Of a stretch of 64,000 bases of DNA, positions 27,001-58,400 are shown in pieces (position 1 is the stretch's first letter; each line of letters opens with the position of its first letter). The notes beneath the pieces are model-generated. The model ran no database searches and was not told where the DNA came from. It saw only the letters and a program-made list of their open reading frames with translations. The stretch lies in assembly GCF_036588685.1 (NCBI RefSeq), contig NC_086375.1, positions 25,730,001 through 25,794,000 on the forward strand, in the 5' to 3' direction. The DNA comes from Mytilus trossulus (taxonomy: Eukaryota). The position numbers and the translations under genes were made by a program.

Positions 27001-27945
27001 TTACATCAACTTGAAATTTAGTACACATGTTTCCTATGACATGATCTTTCTAAATATAATTCCAAATTAAAGTTTGACCCCAATTTCACAGTCCAATGAA
27101 CATAGAACATGATAGTACGAGTGGGGCATCTGTGTACTATGGACACATTCTTGTTTTTTTAAAGTTTTGCTCATATTATGTGATAAACAAAAAGTACACA
27201 CATGTTGAATGTTTATACCTTTATGTTTTATTCATATAATATTTGTTAAATAATAACGAACAGTTGAGAACATCACTTAGGCTAAGAAAGAATAATGATT
27301 TGTACAAGTTATTATCTTTTTTCTCAGTAAAAATTATACTAGTAATTGCTTGTACAAAAATATCTTCATTTATAATGAGCAATTGGTCAGCTGTATTTTA
27401 TGTGATTTATGTGCTGATGTTTGTCTTTTCAAATGCTTTTTGTTTTTTGACATGACCTTGTGTGTTTGAGTGTTTTAGTTTCTTTCTCTTCTCTTTCTTA
27501 TCTTATCTATATAAAATTGCAAGATGTACACATTTCTCCTAACGTGAATGAGTATTTTCACCGGAAAAGTTATAAGTATTGAATATTTATCTTTAAAGGT
27601 GGTGCTTCTGGTATGACAGAGAAAGAATACACGAATCCCGACAAAATCAGTGTATTAGAATTAAAGGAAGCAGTTATGGTAATGATAAGAGACACCCTTG
27701 ATTGTTCCGATTATTACAACTGGAAGAAACTTGCCGACCTCCATAAGTGGTCCTTTGGTCGAATATACCAGCTTGAACAGAAGTGGAAGAGTCGTAAAAT
27801 CGAGAGTCCTTTCATGCATCTGATTGAAGAATTTCAGCATTATACCCTTCTAGATCTGAAGGAAGATTTGAAACAAATCCCAAGAAAAGATCTGTTGCAC
27901 AAAATAGAGGAACTTCAGAGGGGAGGAATGTTGTTCCATAATTAG
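18098..27945 (+). CDS. Putative signalling adaptor, 538 aa: N-terminal TIR-like (BCAP/BANK1 type) domain, S/Q/N-rich linker, C-terminal death domain
   Basis: Nine phase-consistent GT-AG exons: 18098-18203, 18697-18813, 19408-19569, 21291-21410, 21761-21895, 22826-23356, 24141-24199, 24694-24733, 27599-27945 (1617 nt including stop). The last exon LDCSDYYNWKKLA...IESPFMHLIE..YTLLDLKEDLKQIPRKDLLHKIE has the MyD88/IRAK/EDARADD death-domain pattern. The N-terminal NKCCVLILDDELV...KITSKPNKLIYFKLV...FDECEWRQ resembles the BCAP TIR (less certain). Confidence 0.82.
20024..21257 (+). mobile_element. Helentron-associated interspersed element (HINE/DINE-1-like), family A, about 500-bp internal repeats
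   Basis: 5' subterminal IR AGCTCACCTG..CAAGTGAGCT, (CGTC)n-like microsatellite, tandem core repeats, and a 3' end with the short hairpin GCTCTTTAGAGC. Confidence 0.75.
22277..22427. mobile_element. Short MITE with TGAGG...CCTCA termini (other copies 28726-28876, 61529-61715)
   Basis: Three similar copies; 4-bp TSDs TTCA (28726 copy) and TTAC (61529 copy). Confidence 0.65.
22430..22782 (+). mobile_element. Full-length tRNA-derived SINE (Meta-SINE-like) with a perfect 14-bp TSD
   Basis: A box TGGTGTAGTGG, B box GGTTCGATTC, central GGACGGGGACGATAAA...TGCACGTTAAAGA; TSD AAACCCCCCTCATA at 22416-22429 and 22783-22796. Confidence 0.85.
26701..27153 (+). mobile_element. HINE family B with about 170-bp internal repeats (other copies 56591-57016; minus-strand fragments 42525-42677 and 58148-58325)
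   Basis: ATGCCCCACCTA..TAGAGGGGCAT 5' IR, (CGTC/CGTT) microsatellite, duplicated core CAGGTTAAAGTTTTTGGTCAAGG..., 3' GTGGGGCAT..TGTGT..GGACACATTCTTG. Confidence 0.75.
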
Positions 27946-32691: not shown

Positions 32692-35102
32692 TTAGTGGGG
32701 CACTAAGAATTTAACCTGAGAAGACAGTATAAAAAAGAAGATGTGGTATGATTGCCAATGAGACAACTATCCTCAAAAGACCAAAATGGCACAAACATTA
32801 ACAACTTTAGGTCACCGTACAGCCTTCAACAATGAAAAGCCCATATCGCATATAGTCAGGTTTTCAATTATTAGAGGTTACCATTATATATTAAAGAAGA
32901 TGTGGTTTTATTGCCAATGCGACCACTATCCACAAGAGACCAAATGACATAGAAATTTACAACAATATGTCAATACATGGCCTTCAACAATGAACAAAGC
33001 CCATACTGCATGCACATTTTCACTGCTTTCAAACTGATTTTGGTAAGGAGTATGCTGAAAGTAATCAATAAATATAAGGAGATTTTACACTCAAAAAACA
33101 CAATGAAAACTATATTCTTTATGAAAAAAGTAAGATAACAACATCAAGGAAAATTTCAAACATCAAATGGCAAAAGGGCAAAAAATGAAAACTATCCTGA
33201 ATATATTTGAACTATTTGCCACTTGACATAAAGCATACAAAAAATAAGGAATGAAACTTAGGAATATGTAGGAATAATGAATTTTATGATTATTTCGGGA
33301 TTAGGATAATGTCTATGTGGCAGAACAATTTTATTAGAGCTCCAAGATTTTAACGTATGAAAAAAGGGCATTATATTTGTGTACAAACAAAATGAATGGA
33401 TTCAATCATTGTTTGTTTACATCCTGTTGTTTTCATTTATATGATTAATCCATTTGATGTTTTAAAAAAAAGGATTAAAAAAACAGGTTTTATATAGGAT
33501 TGGAGTTATTTTCAACAGTTTTTTTTCTAAATAGAAATCACATGTTTTATAATGCTACACTTAGAATTTACTATCAAACATCTCACAACAATTTAACATG
33601 TGAAATGAAATCTGGTGCAACTTTTAAAAAGCATTGCATACTTTGTTTTTTTTATATGAACAGCTCTAAAACTCAAATGTATAAACATTTTTATTGTATA
33701 AAGTTTTCCATAACTATCTGTAATGTATGAAATCCATAGTATTGATTATTTTTACTTTTATATTCCAATATTTTTGATGATATTGATATTTATCACATAC
33801 TTAGACTAAGTAACATATGATTTTTACTGTATGATAATATCATTAAATTAACGTAAATTCCATATTTTTCAAATTGGTGCTTAGCGGGCTGATATGAAAA
33901 GTTTATCACATGCTTCGAGTGTTATCTAATGTCTTTCCGTAACGTTATCGCATGGCATTCCAGTGAAACTCGGCAAATTCAGTAAAATACACTTCAATGC
34001 TACGTTTTCACTGAAAAACATTACAAAGAAGTGTAGTACAAAACAATTATTTGGATACTGGAAAGTATATTTTGTAAAATAAAACAAAAACAATCAAATT
34101 ATTAAATAAATGCATTTTTTAAAGTTTAAAACATAATTTAGAAAGTTGATTTTTCAAAACAGTGTTCATTATGTATATTTTTTAATTATTTTTTTGTCGT
34201 TTCGTCAAAATTTAAATGTTTTTCTTCTATGTTGAGGCATATGATAGAAAAATTTCATATCGAATGTACTAAATTTAGGGTCTGATGTCCGTGAACTTTT
34301 CACTCTTTGAACTTCTATTTGGGAACCACGTAGAAGGATCAATATATGAATCTGATTTTCTCAATCGTTGAAGCATATGATAAAAAGATCATAACATGTC
34401 ATTTTTCATATTGCATGTATTATCAGCCCTCGGTCAATATCAGCCCTTGAGCCATGCTGCTCTTGGGCTGATATTGAACCTAGGGCTGATAATACATGCG
34501 AAATGAAAAATGCCATGTAATAATCTGATATTATCATCTTTGGGATGATTGATTATATCAACAAAGTCTAACGATAATTTGCAAATTTACTTTATAGATA
34601 TATAAAGTTGTCATATATTTAGACATGTACAATAAAATTTAAAAAATAATGTTGCGGCATAGTCATTAGCTTTATCATCTTTGATGACAGACATAATAGC
34701 TGACCTGAAAATATAAAAAAGAAGATGTGGTATGATTGCCAATGAAACAACTATCCACAAAAGACCAAATGACACTAAAAAGTACACCATCCACATGCTA
34801 CTATACAATGTGTAATGTTTTACAACTGTAATTAAAGCAATAAGCAAAGGCATTACATCAACCAACAAAAGCTACATTTTTAGAGTAGTCTAATGCTCTG
34901 GACAGGTCGCAGGCTTTGTTGTCATGATGTCAGTCAGAATCAATGGTTTGAATCCTGCTAACATTGTTGGGCTCTTTGTATATATATATTTATATGTCGA
35001 TCAGACATAGTTCACCTGACCAAACACGGTTAAAATTAAGAGATTAGGTCAGTTTCTCAAATACTATAAGCAGTAGATCAACAGTGTATAGAATGAGTGT
35101 AA

Positions 35103-38100
35103 TGGGGCCAAGTGAGCTTTTTTCATCACTTGGCGTCCAGCGTCCGGCGTCCCTCGTCATTGTTGTCGTTTACTTTTACAAAAATCTTCTCCTCTGAACC
35201 TACTGGGCCAAATCAATCCAAACTTGGCCACAATCATCATTGGGGTATCTAGTTTAAAAAATGTGTGGCGTGACTTGCCAAACCAACCAAGATGGCCGCC
35301 ATGGCTAAAAATAGAACATAGGGGTAAAATGCATTTTTTGGCTTATAACTCAAAAACCAAAGCATTTACAGCAAATCTGACTGGGGTAAAATTGTTTATC
35401 AGATTGTTTATCAATTTTCAGATGAATCATACAACCAGTTGTTGGGTTGCTGCCCCTGAATTGGTAATTTTAGGGAAATTTTGCTGTTTTTGGTTATTAT
35501 CTTGAATATAAGTATAGATAGAGATAAACTGTAAACAGCTATAATGTTCAGCAAAGTAAGATTTACAAATAAGTCAACATTACCAAAATGGTCAGTTGAC
35601 CCCTTTAGTAGTTATTGTCCTTTAAAGTAAATTTTTAACCATTTTTCGTAAATTTTATATATCTTTTACAAAAATCTTCTCCTCTGAAACTGCTGGGCCA
35701 AATTAATCCAAACTTGGCCACAATCCTCTTTGGGGTATCTTGTTTAAAAAATGTGTGGCGTTACCCGCCAAACCAACCAAGATGGCCGCCGTGGCTAAAA
35801 CTAGAACATAGGGGTAAAATGCAGTTTTTGGATTATTACTAAAAAAACAAAGCATTGAGAGCAAATCTGACACAAAGGTAAAATTGTTTGTAAGGTCAAG
35901 ATCTTTTTGCCCTGAAATTTTCAGATGAATCAGAGAACACGTTGTTGGGTTGCTGCCCCTGAATTGGTAATTTTAAGGAAATTTTGCTGTTTTTGGTTAT
36001 TATCTTGAATATTATTATAGATGAAGATAAACTGTAAACAGCAATAATGTTCAGCAAAGTAAGATTTACAAATAAGTCAACATGACCAAAATGGTCAGTT
36101 GACCCATTTAGTAGTTATTGCCCTTTAAAAGTCAATTTTTAACCATTTTTCGTAAATTTTATATATCTTTTACAAAAATTTTTTCTCTGAAACTGCTGGG
36201 CCAAATTAATCCAAACTTGGCCACAATCCTCTTTGGGGTATCTTGTTTAAAAAATGTGTGGCGTTACCCGCCAAACCAACCAAGATGGCCGCCGTGGCTA
36301 AAACTAGAACATAGGGGTAAAATGCAGTTTTGGGATTATTACTAAAAAAACAAAGCATTGAGAGCAAATCTGACACAAAGGTAAAATTGTTTGTAAGGTC
36401 AAGATCTTTTTGCCCTGAAATTTTCAGATGAATCAGAGAACACGTTGTTGGGTTGCTGCCCCTGAATTGGTAATTTTAAGGAAATTTTGCTGTTTTTGGT
36501 TATTATCTTGAATATTATTATAGATGAAGATAAACTGTAAACAGCAATAATGTTCAGCAAAGTAAGATTTACAAATAAGGCAACATGACCAAAATGGTCA
36601 GTTGACCCATTTAGTAGTTATTGCCCTTTAAAGTCAATTTTTAACCATTTTTCGTAAATTTTATATATCTTTTACAAAAATTTTTCCTCTGAAACTGCTG
36701 GGCCAAATTAATCCAAACTTGGCCACAATCATCTTTGGGGTATCTTGTTTAAAAAATGTGTGGCGTTACCCGCCAAACCAACCAAGATGGCCGCCATGGC
36801 TAAAACTAGAACATAACTATTGGTTTATAAAAATTTTAATCAAATATCATCTTATAACTAAGCCTCATTTAATTTTACAAATTTGTCATGAATCCATCTA
36901 CTTCCTTTGTTTAATATTCACTTAGACCAAGGTGAGCGACACAGGCTCTTTAGAGCCTCTAGTTTGGTATCATATTTGAAATTGTTTTATAACTCATCGG
37001 CAGGGACGTATATACTATATAGTATATATTATCAGTCCTTGTTATCGGTGACCTATATTTTTATTATGATTTCAAATAAGCTGTACATAAACTAAATAAT
37101 TTTAAAATTTAAGAGATTTCTGTAATTAGGTTTTGGCCACAATCATCATTGGGGTATCTAGTTTAAAAAATGTGTGGCGTGACTCGCCAAACCAACCAAG
37201 ATGGCCACCATGGCTAAAAATAGAACATAGGGGTAAAATGCATTTTTTGGCTTATAACTCAAAAACCAAAGCATTTACAGCAAATCTGACTGGGGTAAAA
37301 TTGTTTCTATCTGCCCTGAAATTTTCAGATGAATCATACAACCAGTTGTTGGGTTGCTGCCCCTGAATTGGTAATTTTAGGGAAATTTTGCTGTTTTTGG
37401 TTATTATCTTGAATATTATTATAGATAGAGATAAACTGTAAACAGCAATAATGTTCAGCAAAGTAAGATTTACAAATAAGTCAAGTGACCAAAATGGTCA
37501 GTTGACCCCTTTAGAAGTTATTGCCCTTTATTGTCAATTTTTAACCATTTTTCGTAAATCTTGGTTATCATTTACAAAAATCTTCTCCTCTGAAACTACA
37601 GGGCCAAATCAATCCAAACTTGGCCACAATCATCTTTGGGGTATCTAGTTTAAAAAATGTGTCCGATGACCCAGCCATCAAATCAAGATGGCCGCCACAG
37701 CTAAAAATAGAACATAGAGGTAAAATGCAGTTTTTGGCTTATAACTCGAAAACGAAAGCATTTAGAGCAAATCTGACATGGGGTTAAGATGTTAATCAGG
37801 TCAACATCTATCTGCCCTGAAATTAACACATAACCTGTTGTTGGGTTGCTGTCCCTGAATCAGTAATTTTAAGGAAATTTTTCTTATTTTGGTTATTATC
37901 TTGAACATAATTATGGATAGAGATAAACTGTAAACAGCAATAATGTTCAGCAAAGTAAGATTTACAAATAAGTAAAAATGACCGAAATGGTCAATTGACC
38001 CCCTAAGGAGTAATTGTCCTTTATAGTCAATTTTTAACAATTTTTATAAAATTTGTAAATTTTTATTAACATTTTCCACTGAAACTACTTGGCCAAGTTC

Positions 38101-38271
38101 ATTATAGATAGAGATAATTGTAGGCAGCAAGACTGTTTAGTAAAGTAAGATGTACAAACACATCACCATCACCAAAACACAATTTTGTCATGAATCCATC
38201 TGCTTCCTTTGTTTAATATTCTGAAATCACATAGACCAAGGTGAGCGACACTGGCTCTTTAGAGCCTCTAG
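35103..38271 (+). mobile_element. Two adjacent family-A HINE copies (35103-36962; 37131-38271) with about 500-bp tandem core units
   Basis: Same core as 20024-21257 (unit starts near 35181, 35671, 36175, 36677). Both copies end in GGTGAGCGACAC.GGCTCTTTAGAGCCTCTAG and are interleaved with fragments of the TTAA MITE. Confidence 0.8.
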
Positions 38272-39899
38272 TTTTTATATTTCGATTATATTACCTCTAT
38301 TTCTCCTATTAGCTCAACAGATTAAAGGACATTATCAAAAATTATGCTTATTTTCAGCTTAAATGGACGGTGACCCCATTTTTTAATTTCATTTTTCTTT
38401 TTAGTATATGATAAAGTTCATTTTAAAAAAAATATAGCGAAATCCTATATAAGAAAAAAAATTGAATTATACCCAGGAGTCCGAGCCCCCTTAATTGGTC
38501 AACGTTAAGTTTTGTGTGTTCGGTCTGTTTTCAGTAGGTCAACTATATTTGGTGTTGATCTTTTTAATTTTTAAGTTATGGCGTTGTCAATAGATATAGG
38601 AAGATGTGGTGTGAGTGCCAATGAGACAACTATCAGTTTATTTTCTACTTATGAGTTTGAATTCCGAGGTCCTGTGCCAGTTGAAGCCCGACACCGGTTG
38701 CGGGATTTTCTTGCTGCGTTAAAGACCCAATGGTGGGCTTCGGCTGTTTTCTAATTTTTGCTCGAGTTGTTGTCTCTTTGTCATATTCCCTATTTCCATT
38801 CACACAGTCTGCCACATCAAGACTTCCAATTACTTCTTACATACTTTAGCAAGTATACTAAAGATTGGTGACATTTCATGTTGCACTTTGTAAACACAGC
38901 TATTTCACAAACCCTTCCTCTCTTTGGAAGATTTATATTATTCAGATAGTTTGTTTTGTTTACCAACTGGCTCCCAGATATGATCTACAAGTTTCATCTT
39001 GTAGGGAATCTTACCAGGATAAACACACATGGATAGCGACCATATTTAATTCCGATGAAGACCCACAGTGAAGGTTTGGTAGTACAGGTTAAGTATATAT
39101 ACCGTTACTCTCTTAGAATTTCGAGGCATATTTAATGTTAAAAATATGCTGCACAGTTAGCCTATGAAAAAATAGTACTGCATTTAAACTTAACATTCTA
39201 AGACACAATATTTTATAGTAATAGTTTTAGTCGTTGAAGAATGAGTTCCTATGGAAAGTTGCATTACCTACCTTACCATATTTCATAATTTATAGATTGT
39301 ATAAAATTGAGACGTGTCAAAGAGAATACAACCAGACCAAAGAAAAACAACAGAAGGCCACCAATGGGTCTTTCACACAGCGAGAAAATTCCGCACCCAA
39401 AAATGTATACTAGTTCAGTCATACTATAGTTTATTTTGACTCGAAGCATTTCATGTTTTTTACGGTGTAGTGTTTTTACTGTATACAAAACATTTTCTAT
39501 TCAGAATGTAATTTATGTGTTTCTGATGTACTATTCAATGCAGATTTAGACATTCTTCATTCAAGGCAATCTAATAAAACTGATCCTTTTAGAAAAGGCA
39601 TTGACATACAATTGCACAAGCTTAACACACTATTTCCATATATAGTGAGTTCTAGAGCACCGTCCCTTGATGAATATTGTCCAGTAGCAATGTTAACCCT
39701 TGCTATTGTGCATTAGTCATGAGGAGAATCACTATTGGAGTAATCTCGTGTATCTGTAGCTAGTTCTGAAGGATCCCCCTTGATGACCTTTGCATTGTTG
39801 TGATGAAGTCCCTCCCTACTGTGCACTGGTCATGAGGAGAACTACTGCAGATTGAGATACTATATTCCCGGTTCTATTTTTGCTATTTTTTAGTTTTTA

Positions 39900-40607: not shown

Positions 40608-41848
40608 ATGACGACACAAGAAAATTTGAAAACTACTACTTTAGACACAAGAAAATTGAAAACTACTACTTTAGACACAAGAAAATTGAAAACTACTACT
40701 TTAGACACAAGAAAATTGAAAACTACTACTTTTTTTTTTAGCTCCAAGTTAAAGGTCGGTATAATCAGCTAGACAAGACAATACAAGACATTAAAATTGA
40801 AAACTACTACTTTAGATACTGAAACCCATCTAGTGCTTCGCCAACAACTAAAACAACTAAAACAACTAAAACAACTAAAACAACTAAAACAACTAAAACA
40901 ACTAAAACAACTAAAACAACTAAAACAACTAAAACGTATGTAATATCATTGTAATATATCATTCTTATAGTCTCTCATTTCTCTTTAGTTATTATTAGAT
41001 GCTTGTTTTATGTAAAGTTGTAATATTATGTAAATGATTATAGGATGTGTGACTTAAGTAAGATAATGTCTTGTATTGTCTTGTCTAGCTGATTATACCG
41101 ACCTTTAACTTGGAGCTAAAAAAAAATGTCGAATGCGTATATTTTGTAATTCATTTATTTCATTTCGCTCTTTTCATTTATTACTGCTCCTTTGTATACA
41201 TTCCATCATTGTGATGATCTCGAGAGCCTACGTGTTTGTCCATTTGACTGAAAAACTGGCAGTCAGTATCTAGGTTGACTTGTAACTAAATAAAATTACA
41301 ATCATTGTAAACCAATTTTAGTTTCTTTGACAATCTGTGTTAGAAATATTTAAACCAATTTATGTTGATATCGGGTTTTTTTTGGTATTTTGCAGACGAC
41401 AGTTCAAATCCGTCACAGAATAATGAATTTCAAGAAAAAGAATTACCAATGGATGGACTTTTACCAGCCCCACCACCATTATCGTCAAGGAGGGAAAATC
41501 ATTATAGCAAAGACGGTTCACCAAAAAATGACAATGCTCCTGAAATCCCTCCTAGTGATCTTCCACCTCCCGTTCCTCCCCGCAAAAAAAACAATATTTG
41601 ACTCACTTAAACGCTGTCAAAGTGTATCACCACAGCAGCCAACAAGGCATTTATCTGGTCCTTTTCAAAACTTAAATGCAACTTTACCACGGTGTAGTGC
41701 CATGGAAAGGGAAAGACCAACAATAAATGTTTCTTCTGGTCAAGACTTGATAGTGTTTGACTCACTTCCACACTCTGTCATGGGACTGAAGGAATTACGA
41801 CCAAGAATAACCGCTCAAGAGGGAAAGCAAAATTTCTTTAAACGATAA
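40608..41848 (+). pseudogene. Disabled two-exon proline-rich gene; the terminal exon resembles a SOS-type C-terminal tail
   Basis: Exon A: acceptor 40510, ATG 40608, donor 40935, with 30-bp and 9-bp tandem repeats and an in-frame TAG at 40770 inside an inverted insertion. Exon B from 41396 (phase compatible): PAPPPLSSRR...PEIPP..PPPVPPRKK, with a 1-nt frameshift in the A8 run at 41584-41591 that joins the two ORF-track frames. Confidence 0.45.
40843..40935. repeat. 9-bp minisatellite (CAACTAAAA)n; an adjacent 30-bp repeat lies at 40613-40730
   Basis: About 10 perfect copies; GACACAAGAAAATTGAAAACTACTACTTTA x about 4. Confidence 0.9.
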
Positions 41849-44585
41849 TTTTTGTATTGCCAATGGTATCTTTTTTTCTTCCATAATTTAAATCAAAGTA
41901 CTGAGGTACTGAACATCGGATGACTGCAACTTATATTTGATTATGATTAAATGACAAACACGTTTCTTCGGTACATGTGCACAGATATTTTAAAATGATG
42001 TTATCATTCAATAGCGCAAAGGACGTTTGAAGAAATTTCTGCGACAACATAACACCGCGGTATGCCCTCTCAATGTCACATCCGATGTAAAAATGAACTC
42101 AGAATTTTCAGGAGACGTTAGCAACATTTGTTTTGATTGATTCTTCTTTCGTTATATTAATATAGTTCATGCAACAATAGTTTGGTCAGTATTGCTTTCA
42201 CTAATTTTGAGTATTCTTAAAATCAATTAGCATATACATAGAGAAAAAAAATTCTAATATCATATTTTGATTACCTTCAAGGGAGACGGGTTTATATAAG
42301 TTCTTCTTGTTTCATCTTATATAATTGTATTTTGTGCACTTTTGAAAAAATAAAATATTGTTTAAACTGATTTCAAACTAAGTAGCATTTTGTGATACAA
42401 TTGTTGTGATGCAAATTTTATTTAACCAGTTTATTCAAAATTTATTAAGGGTGCTGCTGAACTCGATGTATCGCCTCCTTTGGCTGTTAGTCTCAGGCTG
42501 AACAACAATGATGTTTACTAAGTTTCAGGTTGATTGGATTTCAACTTCATCAAAAACTACCTCGACCAAAAACTTTAACCTGAATCGGGACGGACGGAAT
42601 AACAGAAGAACCGAGGACGGACGGACGGACGAGCGGACGCACAGACCAGAAAACATAATGCCCATAAATGGGACATAAAAATCTCTGTTGTGTTGATCTT
42701 GTATTGCTGATCGTTTAGTCTGTTTGTTTCTCTCTATCTTCTTTAATTTTTGCTCAAAACATAACACAGGGTTAAAAAGAGATCCTTTTTAGGGGCTGGG
42801 CGATAACTCCTATAAAAAGTGACAGCCTACTACCTTGATCTTGTCTTGCTGATCACTTTTGCCTATATAATTTTCTGTCTTTCTATTCTAATTTTAAAGA
42901 AATACGGCACAAACGCAAAACATTGTAAAATTCATCATGAAAGGACAATAACTCTCAAAAGAATTAGGCTGACGATTTATGTAACAGAAATGTGCGAGGA
43001 GATGAATTTCATTACAGAAATGATTGTACTTTCTTTAATGTTGAACGGCTGAAATTTTGACAGCAGATATTTGTGAAGTTAAAATATACTACGAGTTTCT
43101 CTAATTAAATGAACAGCAACGACACATTTGTTCTTGTTTGCTTAGCTAAGTTTGTAAAATTGTAATGTCAGTTTACAAATAACATGTACCTTCCCATTTA
43201 TTCGTGCATTTGTTAATACGTTTAATTTGTTCATGCATTATTTCATATTTGTTATATTGTTGTACTATCATGCCTCATGTGAGGCCTTTAGTGAAATACA
43301 ATGTTTCAGTGTTTCAATGATCTTATTTGTAAAACTTGTCTTGTTAATTATTTTTGCAATTTAATGTTTCTCTGTATCTATAGTATAGTTTTCTAAGATA
43401 TTTAGGCAAAAATTTAAAAAATGTAAAATATGAAAATATGGAGGATAAAAAAAATCAAGAACCGCCCCATTCCAAAATTGTGGTTATTTATGGTCAAGGT
43501 AGCTTATTTTTTGTTGTTTAAAATCAGACAAGTACAATGATTATTTAAAACCATCATTATCATCTATTTAAATTTTGTATTAAGTTATTTTCTAAAATTA
43601 TAAAAAGACCAACCATAGATTTGTCCAAAGTTCCAGTCAAGGTGCTTTGAAAATGTCTTACTTTTTTTCCAATTTATGCCTTTCTGCAATTTTTTCACGA
43701 GGGTACTGGATCTTAACCCTCGGCTAGCGAAGGTTTCATCTCTGTACTAATGGGGTGTTGGAATATCTGGGCGGCCCCGATGTTTCGATGCATTTTATTT
43801 GCCAAAATTTATATATTTGAAAACAAAAGTTGTGAAAGTAATAATGAACTAATACAATGGTCCCTAAAATAGACATTTCATTATTAATAGACAGAGGGGT
43901 ATAAATCTCGGTGAGACAGAAACCCAATGAAAAAAAAATGAAAAGAATTTTAATTTGACACACAGCAAAATCCAACATATATATTTACTATACCATATGT
44001 AACGGTAATAAATTACGTACTTATAGGGAGTATAAACATGTTTTAGATTTCAGTTCTTATGTTCAAATTTTAGAAGTCTTAGAAGTGTCAATTACCACTT
44101 GCAGTTGAAAGGGTAGATACACCTAGCAAAAAATCCCTTTAAATGAGCGTACTTGTATATATTTTACAGCGAAATGTGTTGAGGATGATTTTTTTTTTTT
44201 TTTAGGGTGCGATTTTTATGCAGATTTAAGATATAATTTAATGAAAAAATCTTGTGATATTTGTGAGACTATAACGACAGGACAAACTTTGTTTCTTCAT
44301 GTCAAATGATTTACATGTATATATTTTAAGGGGAAAATTATTTTAACATAATTAAAGTTCATTAAACATGATTTAAAAAAAAGAAAAAAAATCACACTTT
44401 TTGTTTCGATCCCCGAAATGTTGCAATAATTTTAAGTCTCGAATCAATTAATTCAAACAGAAAGAACATTGTGTGGTTACCCAACAGCGGCAGATGAAAG
44501 CTTTCAAAATTATGCCGATAATCACTTGATCAACTTAAATTCCGAGTACTAATTAATTCATCGGCTTGTGATTACGCAATTCTTT

Positions 44586-44787
44586 CCACGCCCAGTGAGT
44601 TTCAAGTCACCCCGTGTATTGTACACAGATCGGACTAATTACCACTACTTGTGTAAAGTGCAATTAACAGATTAAAACAATACGACATTATTCGAGGACC
44701 AATGAAATGGCCGCATCTAAAAACTTCAATGGGCTATTATAAAAACGGGTGTTCTACTATTTTTGACATATTTCAAGCAATTTCAGT
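44586..44787 (+). promoter_or_regulatory. Compact Pol II core promoter of the LxCxE gene
   Basis: CCACGCCC (Sp/KLF box) 44586-44593, CCAAT 44699-44703, YY1-like AAATGGCCGC 44705-44714, TATAAAAA 44738-44745, about 50 nt before the ATG. Confidence 0.55.
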
Positions 44788-45766
44788 ATGCTCAACATGT
44801 ATATAAAAGTTAAAAGCGAGTTAATAACACCTCTTACAGTTGATACGGAATATGAATACGATTTGGATATGACAATGTTTCCGGGAATAAATGATCCTAT
44901 AGCCAGACTTCAACCAACATTACTGATACACTCAAGAGGCGGTTGTGTCTGTAAACAAGATTCATATGCTGAATTGCAAGAATTAATAGGTTCGTATACT
45001 GTTAAACAGATATTGTATAATATATTTTTTACTTTATTACAAAAAAAAATTATTGAAAAAAAATTATTACGAGTTCCTATAAATAACGTTAGCACATGCC
45101 ATAAAAACAATCTGTTTTTTTTAGCGAACTGTTGTGAAATACAAATTCACGTTTAAAACGTTTGACGCAATATAAAAAGAAGCTTTACACGATCTTACAC
45201 TGAGTCTGACTTAGAACTATATGGTCTGAGGTAAAAATTAATTAATAATTATTTTCATTTTTTCATGTGAGGAAAAGTTTATAGTTAACATTTACATATT
45301 CAAGAAAATTGGCTTATGTAAACCTTCTTACCAGTATACTAAATATCATTTTCTGTTTTCAGAATCATGTACAGACTTAGAGTGCAACGAATCAGACAGT
45401 TTCATAGATGAATTTCTTGATGATAGCGATGAAGAAAACTCAGTTTACTCCTCGACACCATCAAACACAGATGATGATTTTTCAAACTGTTCTACTACTC
45501 TTAGTATCGATGATGAATACCTATATAACGGAATAGCATCGATCACAGACCTATTTACACCCGATATCACCACATCGTTACGAAATGCTGAAAAACAGAC
45601 ACCGGAGCGGACAACCTTGTCTCACGCCATTCAGAAGAGAGGTACAAAGCGCAGACTGTTCTCGGATGAAGAAAACAATCCTCCAGCTAAACGGAAGCAA
45701 GCATTTACATGTGATGATAGAGATCTGTTTTCAGTGCTAGATGGATTATTTAACCACAATCAATGA
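44788..45766 (+). CDS. Orphan 201-aa acidic nuclear protein with LxCxE, E2F-like, RxL (KRRLF) and NLS motifs
   Basis: Exon 1 44788-44989 (donor G|gttcgt), exon 2 45363-45766 (acceptor ttttcag; open through to the TGA at 45764); phases match; upstream CCAAT and TATA; AATAAA at 45981. Motifs: DLECNE 45374-45391, KRRLF 45647-45661, PPAKRK 45680-45697. Confidence 0.8.
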
Positions 45767-47454
45767 CATTACCGGTATAAACTATATATTCATGTTGAAA
45801 TAGCTATTTTATGATTTTTTATTATACTTACTTTATTCAAATGTATATTGTAGAATAGTGCGATGTGACAAATGGTGCTTCAGTTTTATGGTGCGGAAAT
45901 TTTATATTACTAGTGCAAAATGTTTGTTAAAAGATTTTGTTATTGTTTATATGTTATGAAATAGTAATCAATAGTGCAAAAATAAAAAGTTAACAAACAT
46001 ACATATTCTTTTATTTAAAATCAACTACATTGGCGCACGGTCTACTATTTATGTGTTATTTTGGACTCTTGTGGAGAATTGTCTCCGACATTGGCATTCA
46101 TACCACATCTTCTTATATCTTTTTAAATACATGACAAAAGGACGGAAGATTTTTTTGTTTATCTGTATATTTCTAGTTGAGAATAATTATGGATTTACTT
46201 TATTCGAACTGATTTATAGATAAAAAGATATCTATGGGAAAATACGTACACTATTTTAATTCAACAAGATTTATGTGTATAGATATAAGAAGATGTGATA
46301 TGATTGGCAATGAGATAACTCTATCCAAGTCACAATTTATGAAAGTAAACCATAATAGGTTGAAGTACTGACCTGTCTTCAACACGGAGCCTTGGCTCAC
46401 AACGCACAGCAAGCTCTAAAGGGTGTAAAACCATTCAAAGACAAAACCAACGGTTCGCATATATGTTGGATATACAAGTAAAAAATAATACATCTTGGGG
46501 AGAGTGCATCGGTAGTATACGATCATACATTGTAATTTAGCAAACTGCAACAATCCTCTTTGCCCTTAGGAATTTGAGCGGATCTGTACATTCGAAGGAG
46601 GGGGATAATCTCCCCATTACTTCGTCGGGAACACAAATATTCCTAGGTGACCGCGGTCTCAGATGTGGCATATTGTTAGTAAAAACTACCGGTATATCTA
46701 TTTCCTGGTAAAAATAACAAGTAATTAAGCTATTGGGAAAAAAGTTGATAGGGTGTTGGTCAGGCCTTTACATGCTATATGTAATTATTTTTTTCCATGC
46801 AAATACCATATTTGTATCACAATTTCATGATTATGGGTTTATTTAGAGTGAGACAATAATTTATACGATGTCAATGCAGAATTTATCGACAATTGAACAC
46901 CAAAGTACAAGCAATCTGGTCAGTTGATTATATAGGGAATCACTGAAACATGACTGGAGCCCCCCTCTAAGGTCAGTCAGCCATAATGAAAAGTTCTGGA
47001 CCCACCATTGTAACTACTCACAGATGTCGTGTCTTTAATCTCACTATCTGTGAATTCGGATACTCATAGTACATTTACATGCATTGAAATGAAGCATCGA
47101 CGAGCTTTCAGGACTTATAATTATATATAACCGAACGATTATTGAAAAAAAATCCAAGTACACAGACAAGCAAAACATAAATGAAAATAAAAACATGAGC
47201 TTCTGACGATCGATTTTCTGGATGTATAGCTTTTATTGAAATTTTGCTTCTCGAATTTACTACCCATCTATTTTAGACAATTGACACCAAAAATTGGAAC
47301 TACATTTATAAGTCCAAAAGAGTCATGCAAGTAAATAACTCATAAAAGAAGTCCTCCAATGAATTGGTTCAATTTTTGCATTATTAATAGATCTGGTATT
47401 AATGATAATTTTTGTGTTGATGATTTCTTTCTATCCATTATAATATTAATATAT

Positions 47455-49244: not shown

Positions 49245-49556
49245 TCCAATCATGGATTATTATATCGACAATATCAATATAATACTTCCATAATCCAATC
49301 AAGTCTATCAGCACAATGATTCATACAAATTAAATTCTTTCATAAAGTGTTGCATTTCATTTTAGTTTATCTGCTGCTCAGCATTAAAACTTTTCCTGTT
49401 GAAAGGTTTGTCCGTATTTAGAGTAATTTTCTTGTTCCAAACAGATTATTATGCCCGTTTGTTCACATCTATAAATATGTTGTGTAGGAGTGTTTTCCAC
49501 AATTACAGAAATCTTAAATTTGATACCCTTTATGTTTTGTAGTGAAAAGTTACATC

Positions 49557-51341
49557 ATTGCAAGTAATGTACCCCAATGTGAGCCATGTGCTGAAGTTGG
49601 GTCATACCTTGAAGCAACACGATGGTGCTACGAGTGTCAACAATGGTTTTGTGACAGTTGCAGAAATATCACAAACGTCTGACTGCTACTAAAGCACATA
49701 CTTTGCTATCAAAGATAGAATATGAAAAACTTCCAAATATGGCATCAGCTATCAGCAGAAAATGCCATAAACATTCCGATAAGCATCTTGAATTCTATTG
49801 TAATATTCATGTTACTGCTAAATGCTTTACTAGCATGAAAGAAGATCATTCGTTATACAAAAGCCATAGCAAACTAAAAGATGTTGCATCAGGAACCAAA
49901 ACGTCTGCAGCTGTCACAGACATAATGGCTACCTTAGAAGATTTTGTTGATGTCTTTGAAAAGCTACACAAAGATCGAAAGACTAATAAGGACAACCTAA
50001 AAGCAGCAAAAGATATTATTGATGCAAAAGTCCGGAACCTTCTTGATGAAAACCAAAAATATCTAAAACAGCTAGCAACTGACTTAAAATCAAAAGCACA
50101 TAAGAAATATACCACAGAAGCATCAGCTTTAGATTTAGAGATAAACAATTATAAAACCAAAAGGTCTGTTTTAGAGAAGAAATTATCTGATGTAAAAACA
50201 ATGGTGGAGTATGCATCAAATGAACAAATGGTTTTGTCTCTAGAAGACATGAACAGAGATGTTTCAAAACATGAAGAATACCTACAAAGTCTAGACGGAC
50301 ATGTATTCACAAAAAAACTTGCTGTTGATTTTAATTTGAATGCCCTGCGTTGAAGGGATACAGTGCGTTCCTTTGGACAGGTATCAGTTCAATCAAATGT
50401 CCAGCGAGGCTCGCTGCTACAAATAAAGCCATGGTGCCAACAAAAAACCCAGCAAAGTTAACAAATACATCTTCGATAGCGACGAGTTACAATAAGGTCC
50501 CCTCCTCTGATGTACGAAAAAAATCTGAAGCAAGACCATTTGGTGACACCTTTGTTCTAGTACGCCAATTTGCCATTCCGCAACCGAAAGCACAGAAAGA
50601 GAATGTTATAAGAGATATCAAATGCCTTCCTAATGGATACCTTGCAATGACCGATAGTGAAAATAGTCGAGTTCTTATTATTGATCAATATGGATTGACA
50701 ATGTTGGAAGAATCTCTTCAAGGAAGGCCAAGATGTCTTACTTTCACAAAAGATGGGAGAATTGCAGTAACGATGTTTGATCTGCAGAAAGTGCTCATCT
50801 GGAACCCATATCAACCATCAAAAAAAGAAAGCATTGATGTCCATGACGAGTGTACTGGGATTGCTTGTGTCAATAATATTTTGATCATTAACTGTCAAAG
50901 GAGGGGTCTTCTGTTGTATAATGTATTAGACACAAAAAGCAGAAGACTTATAGAGTACACTGGAAAATTGGACATACATGAATTTGGTGTAGATAATGTT
51001 TGTATTTTCAAGTCAAAAACAAACGACTTTATAACTTTGAAAATAAATTCAGGAGCTGAGAATGGACGTTTTAAAGTTTACTCTAAAATGCCATCATGTC
51101 TTGCAAAAGAAGACTTTGACAAATTCTACATTATCAATTCTTCAAATGCTGTAACAAAAATTGATACCAAATCATGTAAAAGTGGACTTGTTCTTGATGT
51201 GTCCTTGATGTAACAAACCACAGGCAATAGACTTTTGTCGAAAAATCTAGAGGTCTGATGTCATTTGAAAGTGTCAACAAATTTTACCTCTTTGTTGTTA
51301 ACAATGATGGTAGTTCTATTTTAATGTTTCAAAAAAAGTAA
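49557..51341 (+). pseudogene. B-box/B-box/coiled-coil/NHL-like beta-propeller (TRIM-like, RING-less) pseudogene
   Basis: ATT-GCA-AGT-AAT-GTA-CCC-CAA-TGT looks like a mutated MASNVPQC start. B-box 1 CEPC..ATRWCYECQQWFCDSC/QKYHKRL..TKAH is frameshifted near 49660; degenerate B-box 2 CHKHSDKHLEFYCNIH; coiled coil; frame break near 50350; propeller repeats (IRDIKCLPNGYLAMTD, GRPRCLT, ECTGIAC); stop at 51211-51213 before the apparent ancestral end LFVVNNDGSSILMFQKK* at 51341. Confidence 0.8.
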
Positions 51342-52415: not shown

Positions 52416-55400
52416 TCAAGTTGTGTCAATCATCAGTTTGTCGCACTTGTCCTTGAGGACACCACAGAATACTTCATAGTGATGATTGATACCTGGCTGT
52501 ACATGAAGTTTATATTTAGATCCTAAAGCACCCTCTGGATGTGAGCTTCCATAGAAAACCCTTGATATTCTGGAATGTACTAAAGCCATTGCACACCTAA
52601 AATAAAAATGATTTTGTCAACTATTGTTCATTGTATTTTGATTTGAACTGTAATTGTATAATACTGATTTTGTTGTGTTAAAAAAGGCATATTTCTTTAT
52701 TTGCCTTCTTATGGAATGTCCAGAACAGTATTTTGATTCGAACTGTAATTGTACACTAGTCTACTGGGTTTGCTGTGTTCTTAATTTGTCTTAATAAGGA
52801 ATGCTAAGAGCCAAATAATTGAGTACTGTAAATTCAGAAATTAATGTGAGGTTTTCTTTATTGCGAAAAATGAAACAGATTTGTTAACGAAATAATCAAA
52901 ACTCGCATTTGGAAATTTTTTATATGAATTAAACCAGATTTTTCTCACAATCGTAAAAAATAAAAAAACGCATTTAAGTCTTAAATGACAAAATCGCAAT
53001 AATAAATACACACAATTATTTCTGAATATGCAATAGCTTATACCATCTAGGAAAAATTTGTAAGGGTTCCGCGGAACCCAGTGTCTCGCCTATTTTTGCT
53101 GTAAATCTCAGACTCAACAACAATGAGGAAAAAAATCAATAAAAATATTCCTCTTGTTACTATTTTATGATTGTAAGAAAATCTAAGTCCATTTAAAACT
53201 AAATTACAGAAAAAACAGAGTAATCTTTTTACAAACTTTACTTCTGGATACAATCTTATGATCATAAATAAGCTTCTGTCCAAGTTTGGTACAAACCCAG
53301 GATAGTTTAAGAAAGTTATAAAAATTTAAAAAACTTTAACCACAGAGTGAATGTAATGGTTCCCCGCAGAAAAACTAAGTCCATTTAAAAGTAAAATATG
53401 GAAAAAATGGATTTAATTATTTACAAAATTTACTTCTGGATACTATCTTATGATCATAAACAAGCTTCTGTCCAAGTTTGGTACAAACCCAGGATAGTTT
53501 AAGAAAGTTATTAAAATTCTAAAAAATTTAACCACAGAGTGAATTTAATGTTTCCCTGCAGAAAAATCTAAGTCCATTTATAAGTAAAATATGGAAAAAA
53601 TGGAATTTTATTTTTACAAAATTTACTTCTGGATATTATCTTATGATCATAAACAAGCTTCTGTCCAAGTTTGGTACAAACCCAGGATAGTTGGAGAAAG
53701 TTATTAAAATTCTATAAACTTTAACCACAGAGTGAATGTTTTGTTTCCCCGCAGAAAAAACTAAGTCCATTTATAGTAAAATACGGAAAAAATGGAATTT
53801 TATTTTTACAAAATTTACTTCTGGATACTATCTTATGATCATAAACAAGCTTCTGTCAAAGTTTGGTAGAAATCCAGTATAGTTCAAGAAAGTTATTAAA
53901 ATTTCAAAAACTTTTAACCACAGAGTGAATATTTGTTGACGCCGCCGACGACGCCGACGCCGACGGAAAGTAGGATTGCTTAGTCTCGCTTTTTCGACTA
54001 AAGTCGAAGGCTCGACAATAATAAGGGTAAACTTTTTTGAAGCAGTTTCAGCCTTTATTTTTGTAAAATTCATTAAATTTGGTTATTAATTTGTCAAAAT
54101 GTTTGCACTGTGATTTCAAAGATTGAGGGTAAAATTCTTTTTTCATGGATGCATAATTTTGTGGCTGTGACAAATTCTGATTAAAAGTGTATACACAACT
54201 TGTATTTTATTATGCATGTTGTACTAAAGCTGAATTCTGGGTTATTTGATACCCGAGACCAATGAAAATGTGTACATATGTGTACATAACAACAATGTAT
54301 CCACAGTTACAAACCACCAAAAATGTCCAGTGGACATTTTATACCAGCAGCAGTATTGACCCAATTGTATATAGCTTAACTAAACTGTGCCTTTCCTTGA
54401 TTTTGTTATCAACTATTGTCAAGTCTAAACACATAAATACAAAATTTTCCTTGATATATTCAGCATTAATTGGTATTTTTTGTCATATAAACAGGCATAA
54501 AACAATACTCATAGATTACACATTTTGAAACAACTGCTATAGTCTATCAGCCTATAGCAGTTTCAAGAGAATTGTATTATCTTATAAAGGTGTAGCATAA
54601 CACTACATGGAGATAACAATCTAAAAATTAGCTTAACGTTTTATTTTTAAGGAATGATATTGCACTTTCAATGATAAAAATAAGTGTTTGTCAAACTGCT
54701 TTAAACCAAATGAAATATCTCTGATAATTGGTTGAAGTTTATTGTAATTTTATATTTTTGTCAAAGTGTCAAAGTTAATATTTTGTCAGTTCAAAGAAAA
54801 TAAAACGAGGCAAATTAGTTTTAATCAAGGTGTTTGGTACAAATTTAACACAACATATATGTATTTTAACACTTACATAATGCATGGTTCTGTAGTGACA
54901 TACAAATCATAACCAGTACATAAATAGGGGCCTGTTTTGTCTCCCTTCTCTATACCACAGGAATGTTTTTGTACAGAATTGCTCAAACATTTATCTGCAA
55001 AGTAAATCAAATATGCAACTAAAAACCCAACAGTACTTGTTATTAGAAGTCTCATGACGGGTACATTAAGTCTTGATCATATACCACAATGGATGACCAA
55101 ATAACAAGCAATGTGTCTTGTTTTACAGGAAAATTAGAATATTATCCCATTACGTTTGCAATTCATAGTATGGGAGCATGCCTAAATATAACAATGAAAA
55201 GATTTATAATACACATTTCATGGGATTATTGCTCAATCTAAACAACAAAAGTTTTATTTTTTAACTTATTTGATCAACCAAATAAGTTTTGCAATCCTGA
55301 TTCAAATATTATCAGTGCAATTTTTTCCACCAGATGAATTCAAGGATTTTTTTTTAGTAATTTTGTGTGTGTTGTAAATCTTCTTAAAAAAATCCTTACT

Positions 55401-58400
55401 TTTTAAAACATACCTGATAATCGCCACATTCCACCACCTTGTACTGTGGCCACCTGATCTATTTCCACCATTACAGCATGTTGGAGAGGATGTTTTCCTT
55501 GTCGTAGGTCACATGACTTTGCTATGATTGTGTCAGATTTAGGATCTACTATCACAGCTCCTATATGTACCTTAAAAAAATAATATACATGGCTTAAATC
55601 CGCAAACGAAAATGGAAAGCAATATTCCATTAAAAATGTATGTGGGAGGGTAGGAAGGGACTTTAAATATCCCTAGAATCAAGAACTATTTTTTAGATAA
55701 TTTTGCATAATGATAATAGACGTATACTGAAAAAAGACCCATGAGCCACTTTTGATAACTAAACTTCTCTTCCTACCCTCTCACATATGTTTAAATGGAA
55801 TATCCCTAATAATAATATGAAAAATGTTTAATTAACTTAAAGAAAAAAGAACATGGTTTATCAAAAACTCAAACTGATGTATACCTTAGTATTCAAAGGA
55901 CAAAAATCCCAATGTGATAAATTATTTTTAATATGTGCAGAGAACAATCTTATCTATAGAAAAAAAACCCAGAAAAACTACAGAATTAACAATGCTTGAA
56001 AGTTTAATATGGAGTGATGTTAAATTTATAATTTATTATCGTTTCCTCTCTAGAATCTGCATTGAAATTGATATAACAGTAAACCTTGTATAATGAAGAC
56101 TTGGCAACAGAAATGGCTTCTTCCATGTTCTTATAGATATGCCTGACTTCTTCTGCACTGAAAAAACTTCTGTTCAAAAGTCTAGTTATCCTGTAAACAA
56201 AGATAAACCTATCTTAAAGTAAATATCCCTTTCTCATTCTAAATGATTAACAGATTCTTCATGGAAATTCAAAAGTATTTGATTTTGCTCAAATCAAGGA
56301 AAACATAAATTTCACAGCATCATGGACCATACTGTACTGTCAAAGAAAAAACAAGTTTTTTGTCTGGATTTCGAATTTGGTTATTTTTTTCTTGATCATG
56401 TATTGTCATTTTCAAAGTCTGAGTGTTTGAATGAATAGTTTGGTTTTGATGTTTGCGGGAAATTGTTGGTTAATGGTTTTAAAGTGCATGTCTTACAATA
56501 AATTATTCAGTGACAAATCTTGTTTCTACGGTTAGGCCCCGTTAGGGTCAACTTTAAAAACAATGCAATAATAGTACTCTAATATATTCTTTTTATGCCC
56601 CACCTACGATAGTTCATCCATCTGTTAGTCCGTCTGTCCCACTTCAGGTTAAAGTTTTTGGTCAAGGTAGTTAATGATGAAATTGAAGTCCAATCAACTT
56701 GAAACTTAGTACACATGTTCCTTATGATATGATCTTTCTAATTTTTAAACCAAATTAAACTTTTGACCCCAATTTCACGGTCCACTGAACATAGAAAATG
56801 AAAGTGCATGTTTCAGGTTAAAGTTTTTGGTCGAGGTAGTTTTTGATGAAGTTGAAGTCCAATCAACTTGAAACTTAGTACACATGTTCCTAATGATATC
56901 ATCTTTCTAATTTTAATGCCTAATTATATTTTTTATCCAATTTCATGGTCCATTGAACATGGAAAATGATAGTGTAAGTGCAAGTGGGGCATCCGTGTAC
57001 TTTGGACACATTCTTGTTTATTTCAATAGAGATATTATACCTTTTATCTTCATGGAAACTACATGGCCAATATTGTACTGCATTGTTATACTGTTGTCTG
57101 GTCAAGGGAGGTAATTTGGGTACTTTTACCATGTATGGTTTACTAACATGACAATAGACTGGATTATTTTCACACAAATCTAACCAGGTATTAGTTAAGA
57201 AATCTTCTTTATAATTCTCAGCAACAATTATCTGCAATTCATTGGCTGAAATATAATTACACAACATAATAAAGTTTTTTGCATATTGCATAACCAATCT
57301 GTTCAAAACATAGCATTTGTCTTTTCTGTTTCAAAGTCAATTCAACAAATATCACATACAGGACTGAATATTTCATAAGATTATATGAGCAAGATGTTTT
57401 TCCTAAATTTTATTAAGGCAATTAAGAAATAAATTATATGAAACCAATATGGGGCCTTGGAGGCTGAATGGTCGCAGTAGTTACTTCTGTAATCACTAGC
57501 CAGTCAACACTGAGGTTGTAGGTTCCAATCCTGCTCTTGCGAGTGTACTTAACTCAAATCTCAATTGACTAGGATTATCAGTTTTATTATCAAAGGTCAG
57601 AGGATTTTCTCCGGGCACTCTGGCTTCAACCAGCAATAAAACTGGTCACCACAAAATAGCCTAAAGGTTAGAAAGAGGTGTTAAACACCAAATATCAATC
57701 AATCAATATGAAACGAATAAATAATATTTCAGGGCCTTTAAAGCTGACTATGCAGTATGTACAGGCCTTTGCTTATTGCTCAGGACTGTACAGTAACCTA
57801 CAGTTGTTTCTGTGTTATTTGGTCTCTTGTGGAGGGTTGTCTCATTGGCAATCATCTTCTTTTTTAAACATATATACTATTTCTTTTAGTTCTGGGAATT
57901 TTCTGTCTCGCTAATATCCAGTTTCCGTGTTTTTCCATCTATGAATAAATAAATATATATAACAATATTATCAATAAAACATTACCTTGATTTGTATTTG
58001 ATCTGACTCTTTTCAGGTGAGATAACTTGTCCAAAGGTAAATGTTTACAAATGTTTCTGAAAATAAAATTAATATTTTTTTTTTAAAAGAATACATAGTT
58101 GTACCATCACTTAAAAAATAAAAAAAATAAAACAGAAAGATAAAACTAACCAAGAATGTGTCCATAGTAGGTAAATGGATACCCTTTTTGCACTTCCATT
58201 TTTTATGTTCAGTGGAGCAAAACTCAAATTTTGCATTAAAATTAGAAAGATCATATCATAGAGAACATGTGTACTAATTTTCAACTTGATTGAACTTAAA
58301 CTTCATCTTAAATCTACCTTAACAAAAAAACTTCACTTTTTTTTAGTGCAACTTACTTCACTATTTCTGAGGTCTTCTTTTTGTCTTTTATTGTACACAC

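Follow-up and report, generated by a model that had tools for sequence, protein, structure and literature searches.

Short LxCxE motifs that bind Rb-family pocket proteins occur in E1A, E7, large T and the Oncoids and also in cellular proteins. In the accessible part of Starrett et al. (PMC8502044), Oncoids are described as having LxCxE with a CK2 site, often together with CR1 and a paired CxxC, upstream of PolB. According to the available text of 10.1101/2021.05.14.444182, E1A needs two sites that are tethered by a linker of 41-75 residues, and a review, as far as its accessible text goes, gives no known cellular orthologue of E1A (PMC5930299). A sequence rule for binding strength is found in the accessible sections of Putta et al. 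(10.1101/2022.06.10.495386): bulky wild-card residues and a hydrophobic residue at +2/+3 mark the tight LxCxE binders, small wild cards lead to affinities of about 10 µM or weaker, and a hydrophobic residue at +4/+5 leads to relatively weak binding, while an acidic residue at -1 and a C-terminal acidic stretch raise the affinity. Docking to cyclins through RxL motifs is described in the part of PMC8728146 that was available.

We analyzed a gene of Mytilus trossulus within a stretch of 64,000 nt (contig NC_086375.1), in the following referred to as the window. An earlier note, made from the letters alone, had described it as a cellular orphan with the motif set of viral Rb antagonists. On present evidence the gene represents an unstudied protein family of a narrow clade, for which a role at Rb and cyclins is a testable hypothesis; it is not yet an oncoprotein mimic.

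Joining the two coding exons (Table 1) across the GT..AG intron resulted in an open frame of 201 aa, as predicted in the earlier note. The product was identical at 201 of 201 positions to XP_063425556.1 (P0006; LOC134709318, uncharacterised), so the gene is annotated already, yet unstudied. No published description was found; supplementary tables, which were outside the search, may list it among differentially expressed genes. The exon 2 frame (45242-45766) has no Met, and this agrees with the earlier explanation that the list of open reading frames missed the exon for want of an ATG. The same exon junction is used by the models of M. edulis and M. galloprovincialis (91-92% identical).

Transcript evidence was examined over 45280-45800 in 4 of the 24 listed runs, which are presumed to be RNA and stem from other organisms; no listed run is recorded as RNA, which counts neither for nor against this. 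In three of them, from three studies (X1, X5 and X16), the acceptor is where contigs begin, and the unaligned letters at their 5' side correspond to the final part of exon 1. Over 30 bases of this exon end, the agreement was complete in X1 and X5, with three differences in X16. The predicted 44989/45363 junction was thus seen in three of the four runs, while X6 stopped short of it. The part of the intron within 45280-45800 was covered by contigs of none of the four runs. Since the runs are only presumed to be RNA and derive from other organisms, an intron-less DNA copy in these organisms is formally possible. Together with the RefSeq model, these data confirmed a real, transcribed and spliced mussel gene. 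At 45728-45787 of the window, around the stop codon, the X1 and X5 contigs step back by 60 bases, which suggests a duplicated 3' end in the organism behind these contigs.

The elements at 44586..44744 (Table 1) are presumably a GC/KLF box, a CCAAT box, a YY1-like element and a TATA box. CpG was undepleted over 44001-46000 (o/e 1.0-1.1). The TATAAAA of the promoter claimed earlier is present, and loose parts of contigs (253 and 255 letters), if colinear, begin at about 44733-44735 and overlap it. A TATA-driven start is only putative, since the 5' parts of the contigs would begin upstream of a start set by the TATA box; assembled contigs cannot fix a transcription start.

The gene is single-copy, with one locus in this genome. 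Four candidate paralogues (L006-L009) were rejected because of stops within the match and absent DNA similarity. When variants near contig ends were excluded, 35 distinct variants were counted, 17 synonymous and 18 non-synonymous, with none at codon position 2. The pN/pS ratio was 0.29 (p = 4e-4), or 0.35-0.42 (p = 0.002-0.009) under transition weighting. The gene is under purifying selection.

We searched for relatives by word-indexed searches and by one HMMER pass over 1.84 billion representatives. The latter gave five matches at E ≤ 0.001. One of these, P0032 (E 2.9e-9), is a 1,624-aa repeat protein and was rejected as a composition-driven match. The family was seen in Mytilus (about 91% identical) and otherwise only in further lineages at 45-61% identity. 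Lineage 2 comprises P0002, P0004, P0012 and P0027 (51-54% identical), which are unspliced contigs with the acceptor position of the window gene. It also comprises P0033, an intron-less copy with 45% identity to the window protein and 71-73% to its intact kin, in which exon 1 is fused to exon 2 at the junction of the window gene. Besides this decayed copy (P0033/P0028), lineage 2 has a frameshifted copy (P0030 cluster). Should P0033/P0028 be a retrocopy, germ-line expression of the gene would be likely. The third lineage is a 78-aa fragment, P0031 (61% identical). The non-Mytilus relatives are, judged by their sequences, probably other mussels. Given the fast drift of disordered proteins and the shallow profile, orthologues beyond the clade may have escaped these searches.

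Table 1. Features of the window gene (positions in the window, aa numbers in the 201-aa product).
Feature	Position	Strand	Remark
GC/KLF box	44586-44593	+	pattern match
CCAAT	44699-44703	+	pattern match
YY1-like element	44705-44714	+	pattern match
TATAAAA, candidate TATA	44738-44744	+	pattern match
Coding exon 1 (aa 1-67)	44788..44989	+	hydrophobic N-terminal region; low-confidence beta strands and one helix
Intron, phase 1, GT..AG, 373 nt	44990..45362	+	acceptor position common to relatives
Coding exon 2 (aa 68-201)	45363..45766	+	predicted disordered save C-terminal helix; purifying selection
DLECNE (LxCxE, aa 72-77) with acidic CK2-type patch; first hydrophobic residue at +4	45374..45436	+	kept in intact relatives
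E2F-like segment of the earlier note, DEYLYNGIASITDLF (aa 118-132)	45512..45556	+	DLF conserved in Mytilus alone
TPDITTSL (aa 133-140), best-kept block	45557..45580	+	T-P-x-x-T layout, Fbw7-type; absent from the earlier note
TPER, CDK-type site (aa 147-150)	45599..45610	+	TP alone kept in lineage 2; NPER in P0031
KRRLF (aa 163-167), putative RxL cyclin docking and basic cluster	45647..45661	+	K-R-x-L-F in all intact relatives
PPAKRK, NLS-like (aa 174-179)	45680..45697	+	PPxKRQ in lineage 2; absent in P0031
C-terminal F-x-C-D-D...L-F-N block, acidic amphipathic helix (aa 182-199)	45704..45757	+	kept in all three lineages; absent from the earlier note
3' UTR with U-rich elements; AATAAA at 45981-45986	45767..45986	+	first part covered by contigs

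Pfam, PHROG and PDB contained no family for the window protein (for P0006 no Pfam match at E ≤ 5), so that a match to a characterised family, which would have spoken against the earlier proposal, was not seen. In the ESM Atlas nothing usable was found by features (best 0.77) or by structure (TM ≤ 0.41), and none of 79 GTDB stretches matched. No longer, fused forms turned up when searched for, which is weak evidence. The AlphaFold model had a pLDDT of 36 throughout, with tentative strands within residues 2-55 and helices at 63-71 and 186-197. The protein is thus predicted to be mostly disordered, in line with the small, largely disordered protein expected in the earlier note.

DLECNE, DEYLYNGIASITDLF, TPER, KRRLF and PPAKRK were each present at the place given in the earlier note, and we compared their conservation. 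D-L-x-C-x-E was kept in all intact relatives covering it, with only the second wild card varying (N/S). This conservation rests on two lineages, since the P0031 fragment lacks the region. DLECNE is followed by SFID and SDEE, which fit the CK2 acceptor pattern (ST)xx(DE). The context of high-affinity binders, bulky wild cards and a hydrophobic residue at +2/+3, was not found: the wild cards are E and N/S, and F is at +4. By the published sequence rule, and not by measurement, the mussel LxCxE matches the weak cellular class, helped by the Asp at -1 and the acidic tail. Of the Rb module of E7, E1A and large T type that had been claimed, the DLxCxE and acidic patch were thus retained, whereas the context is not that of E7. 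Two pocket-protein genes were identified in this genome, and in each of them the YxxxK and FYN residues of the cleft are retained.

The proposed cyclin-docking motif was conserved, K-R-x-L-F being present in every intact relative. Its surroundings are predicted to be disordered and contain S/T-P sites close by, and this genome has a cyclin A exon with the MRxIL patch. In the block TPD[IL]TTS (133-139), T133, P134 and D135 were invariant in 10 sequences; T-P-x-x-T is the layout of an Fbw7 phosphodegron. The CDK site TPxR and the NLS PPAKRK of the earlier note fared less well: TP and PPxKR were kept in lineage 2 and both motifs were lost in P0031. A lineage-specific cyclin-CDK inhibitor or decoy, in which TP...KRxLF...acidic helix would block the cyclin patch and LxCxE would be secondary, could also be built from these motifs. 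The blocks shared by all three lineages are exactly TPDxTTS, KRxLF and the C-terminal helix, and small, disordered and fast-evolving proteins would suit such a role. The CIP/KIP CDI kinase-inhibitory domain was absent by Pfam, however, and LxCxE with its acidic patch was equally well kept where visible. We regard a cyclin blocker as distinctly unlikely.

The E2F segment DYxxxL...GIxDLF of the earlier note did not hold. Its DLF was replaced by NNV, NNL or EEF in all non-Mytilus relatives, and the published CR1 motif of the A/B groove, (DEN)(LIMV)xx(LM)(FY), matched none of 8 proteins; for ITDLF and LDGLF the fit is limited to the last five positions. A paired CxxC metal site was likewise found in none of the 8 proteins, which have only a CxC. 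The segment at aa 118-132 lies at an E1A-like linker distance from LxCxE, yet it is unconserved, and the C-terminal helix is about 115 residues away. The pocket motif of E2Fs sits at their very C-terminal end, and E2F and E1A have D where the mussel C-terminal helix ends in N.

These results bear on the view that the protein is the cell's own equivalent of E1A/E7, antagonising Rb through two sites so as to free E2F and drive S phase, and that it was possibly domesticated from a virus or Polinton. Its E2F-mimicking helix would more plausibly be the C-terminal LxxLFN than aa 118-132, as all three lineages retain a phi-phi-x-x-L-F-N helix at the very end. LxCxE with CK2 sites is a hallmark of Oncoids, the relatives among 1.84 billion representatives are confined to a narrow clade, and this genome contains many Polintons (97 pPolB matches). 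The unmatched CR1, the absence of CxxC and the weak type of LxCxE argue against such a counterpart, as do the conserved intron, the single copy and the cellular neighbours.

A viral source left no sign in the material searched. None of 1,534 frames in 32 stretches, with ten elements sampled on both sides, showed homology in the Polintons of this genome (best E 0.12), and 0 of 156 and 0 of 13 viral contigs matched; PHROGs gave no family either. With P0031 as query, one of three viral stretches passed as a candidate, with no locus displayed; among so few stretches a single 8-residue word can be enough. One such word had also let L003 pass, a bacterial response-regulator gene that was rejected as a relative. 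Pfam detected no viral or transposon family in the 47 flanking frames at 36-56 kb of the window, in agreement with the earlier statement on the flanks. The domesticated viral-type origin put forward earlier thus found no backing; the gene is probably of cellular origin, its short motifs having arisen by convergence, and we hold an E1A-like antagonist to be unlikely.

Three related Polinton-like elements (L046:6405-7496, L048:2464-3561 and L050:2601-3698) carry a frame of 364-366 aa with LxCxE overlapping CxxC and then an acidic stretch. By its sequence this frame is a candidate Oncoid-type ORF, non-homologous to the window gene.

Several other features were seen in the window. The frame at 41393-41850 (+) is likely the last exon of the upstream gene and has a PPPVPPR proline motif; the frame of this gene shifts at an A8 run (41584-41591), by a homopolymer error or in a broken allele. 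A TRIM-like B-box/coiled-coil/NHL gene extends over several frames at 49543-51213 (+), with breaks near 49680 and 50335-50353, and is probably a pseudogene. Exons with weak cytidine-deaminase matches lie at 52419-57330 (-) and belong to what we take to be an ADAT3-type gene. Three tandem C1q-domain genes and a COG2 exon (5180-11406, +; 15611-15931, -), a death-domain exon (27583-27945; Pfam E 0.02) and arrays of a repeat of about 500 bp (20034-21265 and 35097-38280; 80-95% alike) were also present.

We also tested the motifs as a set. The 20 key positions of the earlier note were kept at 14 of 20, compared to 58 of 113 elsewhere (p = 0.10, not significant). For the core positions of LxCxE, TP, KRxLF and PPxKR in P0012, a set chosen post hoc, conservation was 14/14 versus 58/119 elsewhere (p = 1e-4). 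The expectation that motifs are kept while spacers diverge applied to DLxCxE with its acidic patch and KR[RK]LF, which were kept at about 55% exon 2 identity, applied in part to TPxR and PPAKRK, and failed for DLF. In the decayed P0033, LxCxE was lost and RxL and PPxKR were altered, which fits the expectation if the motifs of the intact gene are under selection.

In 200,000 shuffles of the sequence, with patterns chosen after seeing it, LxCxE occurred in 4.6%, [DEN]LxCxE in 1.2%, KRxL[FYLM] in 2.7% and LxCxE plus KRxL in 0.12%. LxCxE with at least 8 acidic residues in the next 20 was found in 0.08%, and LxCxE plus KRxL, a full CDK site and an NLS in no shuffle. Among 525 background frames of this genome, 7 had LxCxE, 18 had KRxL and none had both. 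Conservation is the stronger argument, since proteome-wide such pairs still arise by chance.

The motifs may be incidental. The protein would then be unrelated to Rb, a stress gene or transcription co-factor that combines an NLS and two acidic activation-type helices with a small His/Cys metal-binding N-domain. Even the decayed P0033 (45% identical) retains H48, C53 and C55, and intact relatives retain C70 and C184; the conserved H48, C53, C55, C70, C75 and C184 could be maintained as a metal site. KRxLF and PPxKR can also be read as a bipartite NLS, and the frequency of LxCxE alone in shuffles is in keeping with coincidence. The exact retention of D-L-x-C-x-E, the low joint frequency with KRxL and the joint occurrence of RxL-F and TP sites speak against incidental motifs, which we consider rather unlikely.

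Our best reading, with a probability of about one half, is a lineage-restricted, short-lived nuclear adaptor that would dock weakly to Rb-family pocket proteins by LxCxE and to cyclin A/E-CDK by KRRLF. It starts from a transcribed and spliced gene with conserved LxCxE and acidic patch, TPDxT, KRxLF and C-terminal helix, and the steps beyond these are proposed. The basic cluster at 159-179 would mediate nuclear import. LxCxE would occupy the B-box cleft with the micromolar affinity of cellular partners, and CK2 phosphorylation of the downstream serines may adjust this binding. RxL docking would allow CDK to phosphorylate the TP sites, and doubly phosphorylated TPDxT may lead to destruction by SCF-Fbw7, restricting the protein to a window of the cell cycle. 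The C-terminal acidic helix may recruit a co-activator or touch the A/B groove of the pocket. The net effect would be a brief loosening of Rb/DREAM repression and not an E1A-style stripping of E2F. The degron, NLS and co-activator readings follow general consensus patterns.

A host-encoded E1A/E7 equivalent, in which Rb would be gripped at LxCxE and the C-terminal helix and E2F freed, timed by cyclin docking and the Fbw7 degron, appears improbable. If true, Mytilus, a genus with known transmissible cancers, would carry its own proto-oncogene built on the plan of tumour viruses and possibly acquired from a DNA virus that is now extinct; nothing found ties the gene to neoplasia. A host gene that rebuilds the E1A motif toolkit would mean that a stand-alone Rb modulator is within reach of animal evolution or gene capture, and would supply a concrete candidate for proliferation control in mussels.

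Like E1A, E7, large T and the Oncoids, the mussel protein is small, disordered and motif-dense, with an acidic residue before LxCxE, a CK2-type patch and a basic NLS-like cluster. Unlike them, it has no CR1 consensus, paired CxxC, J domain or homology, its LxCxE is of the weak type, and its gene is present once, on a chromosome among cellular genes, and has a conserved intron. Drosophila Roughex and Fruhstart and the plant SIAMESE-related proteins are small, clade-restricted, disordered cyclin blockers built on RxL/KxL and TP sites; we know of none among them with LxCxE and an acidic patch, and no homology to the mussel protein was found. The SERTA domain that defines SERTAD/TRIP-Br and the Nse4-type domain that defines EID1/NSE4 were absent from the mussel protein by Pfam, and E2F/DP winged-helix DNA-binding and marked-box domains were absent by Pfam (E ≤ 5) and PDB. 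The N-terminal region of papillomavirus E1, in the accessible part of PMC13520174, and the tails of activator E2Fs resemble it in an RxL next to basic NLS clusters and CDK sites within a variable, motif-conserved region; unlike these, it has no helicase, DNA-binding or dimerisation domain, and its DLF is unconserved. In the accessible text of 10.1101/2022.06.10.495386, the weak binders SMARCA2, BRG1 and cyclin D share with the mussel LxCxE small wild cards and a late (+4) hydrophobic residue, and serines after the LxCxE of LIN52 tune binding, as the mussel serines could likewise do. EID1, HDAC1, SMARCA2/BRG1, cyclin D and LIN52 share no homology or domain with the mussel protein, and none of them unites LxCxE, RxL and a TPxxT degron within a chain of 200 aa lacking a known folded domain. 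Judged by its motifs, the mussel protein would work like an LxCxE/RxL motif protein, and it stands outside the E1A/E7/T/Oncoid, E2F, CIP/KIP, SERTAD and EID1 families.
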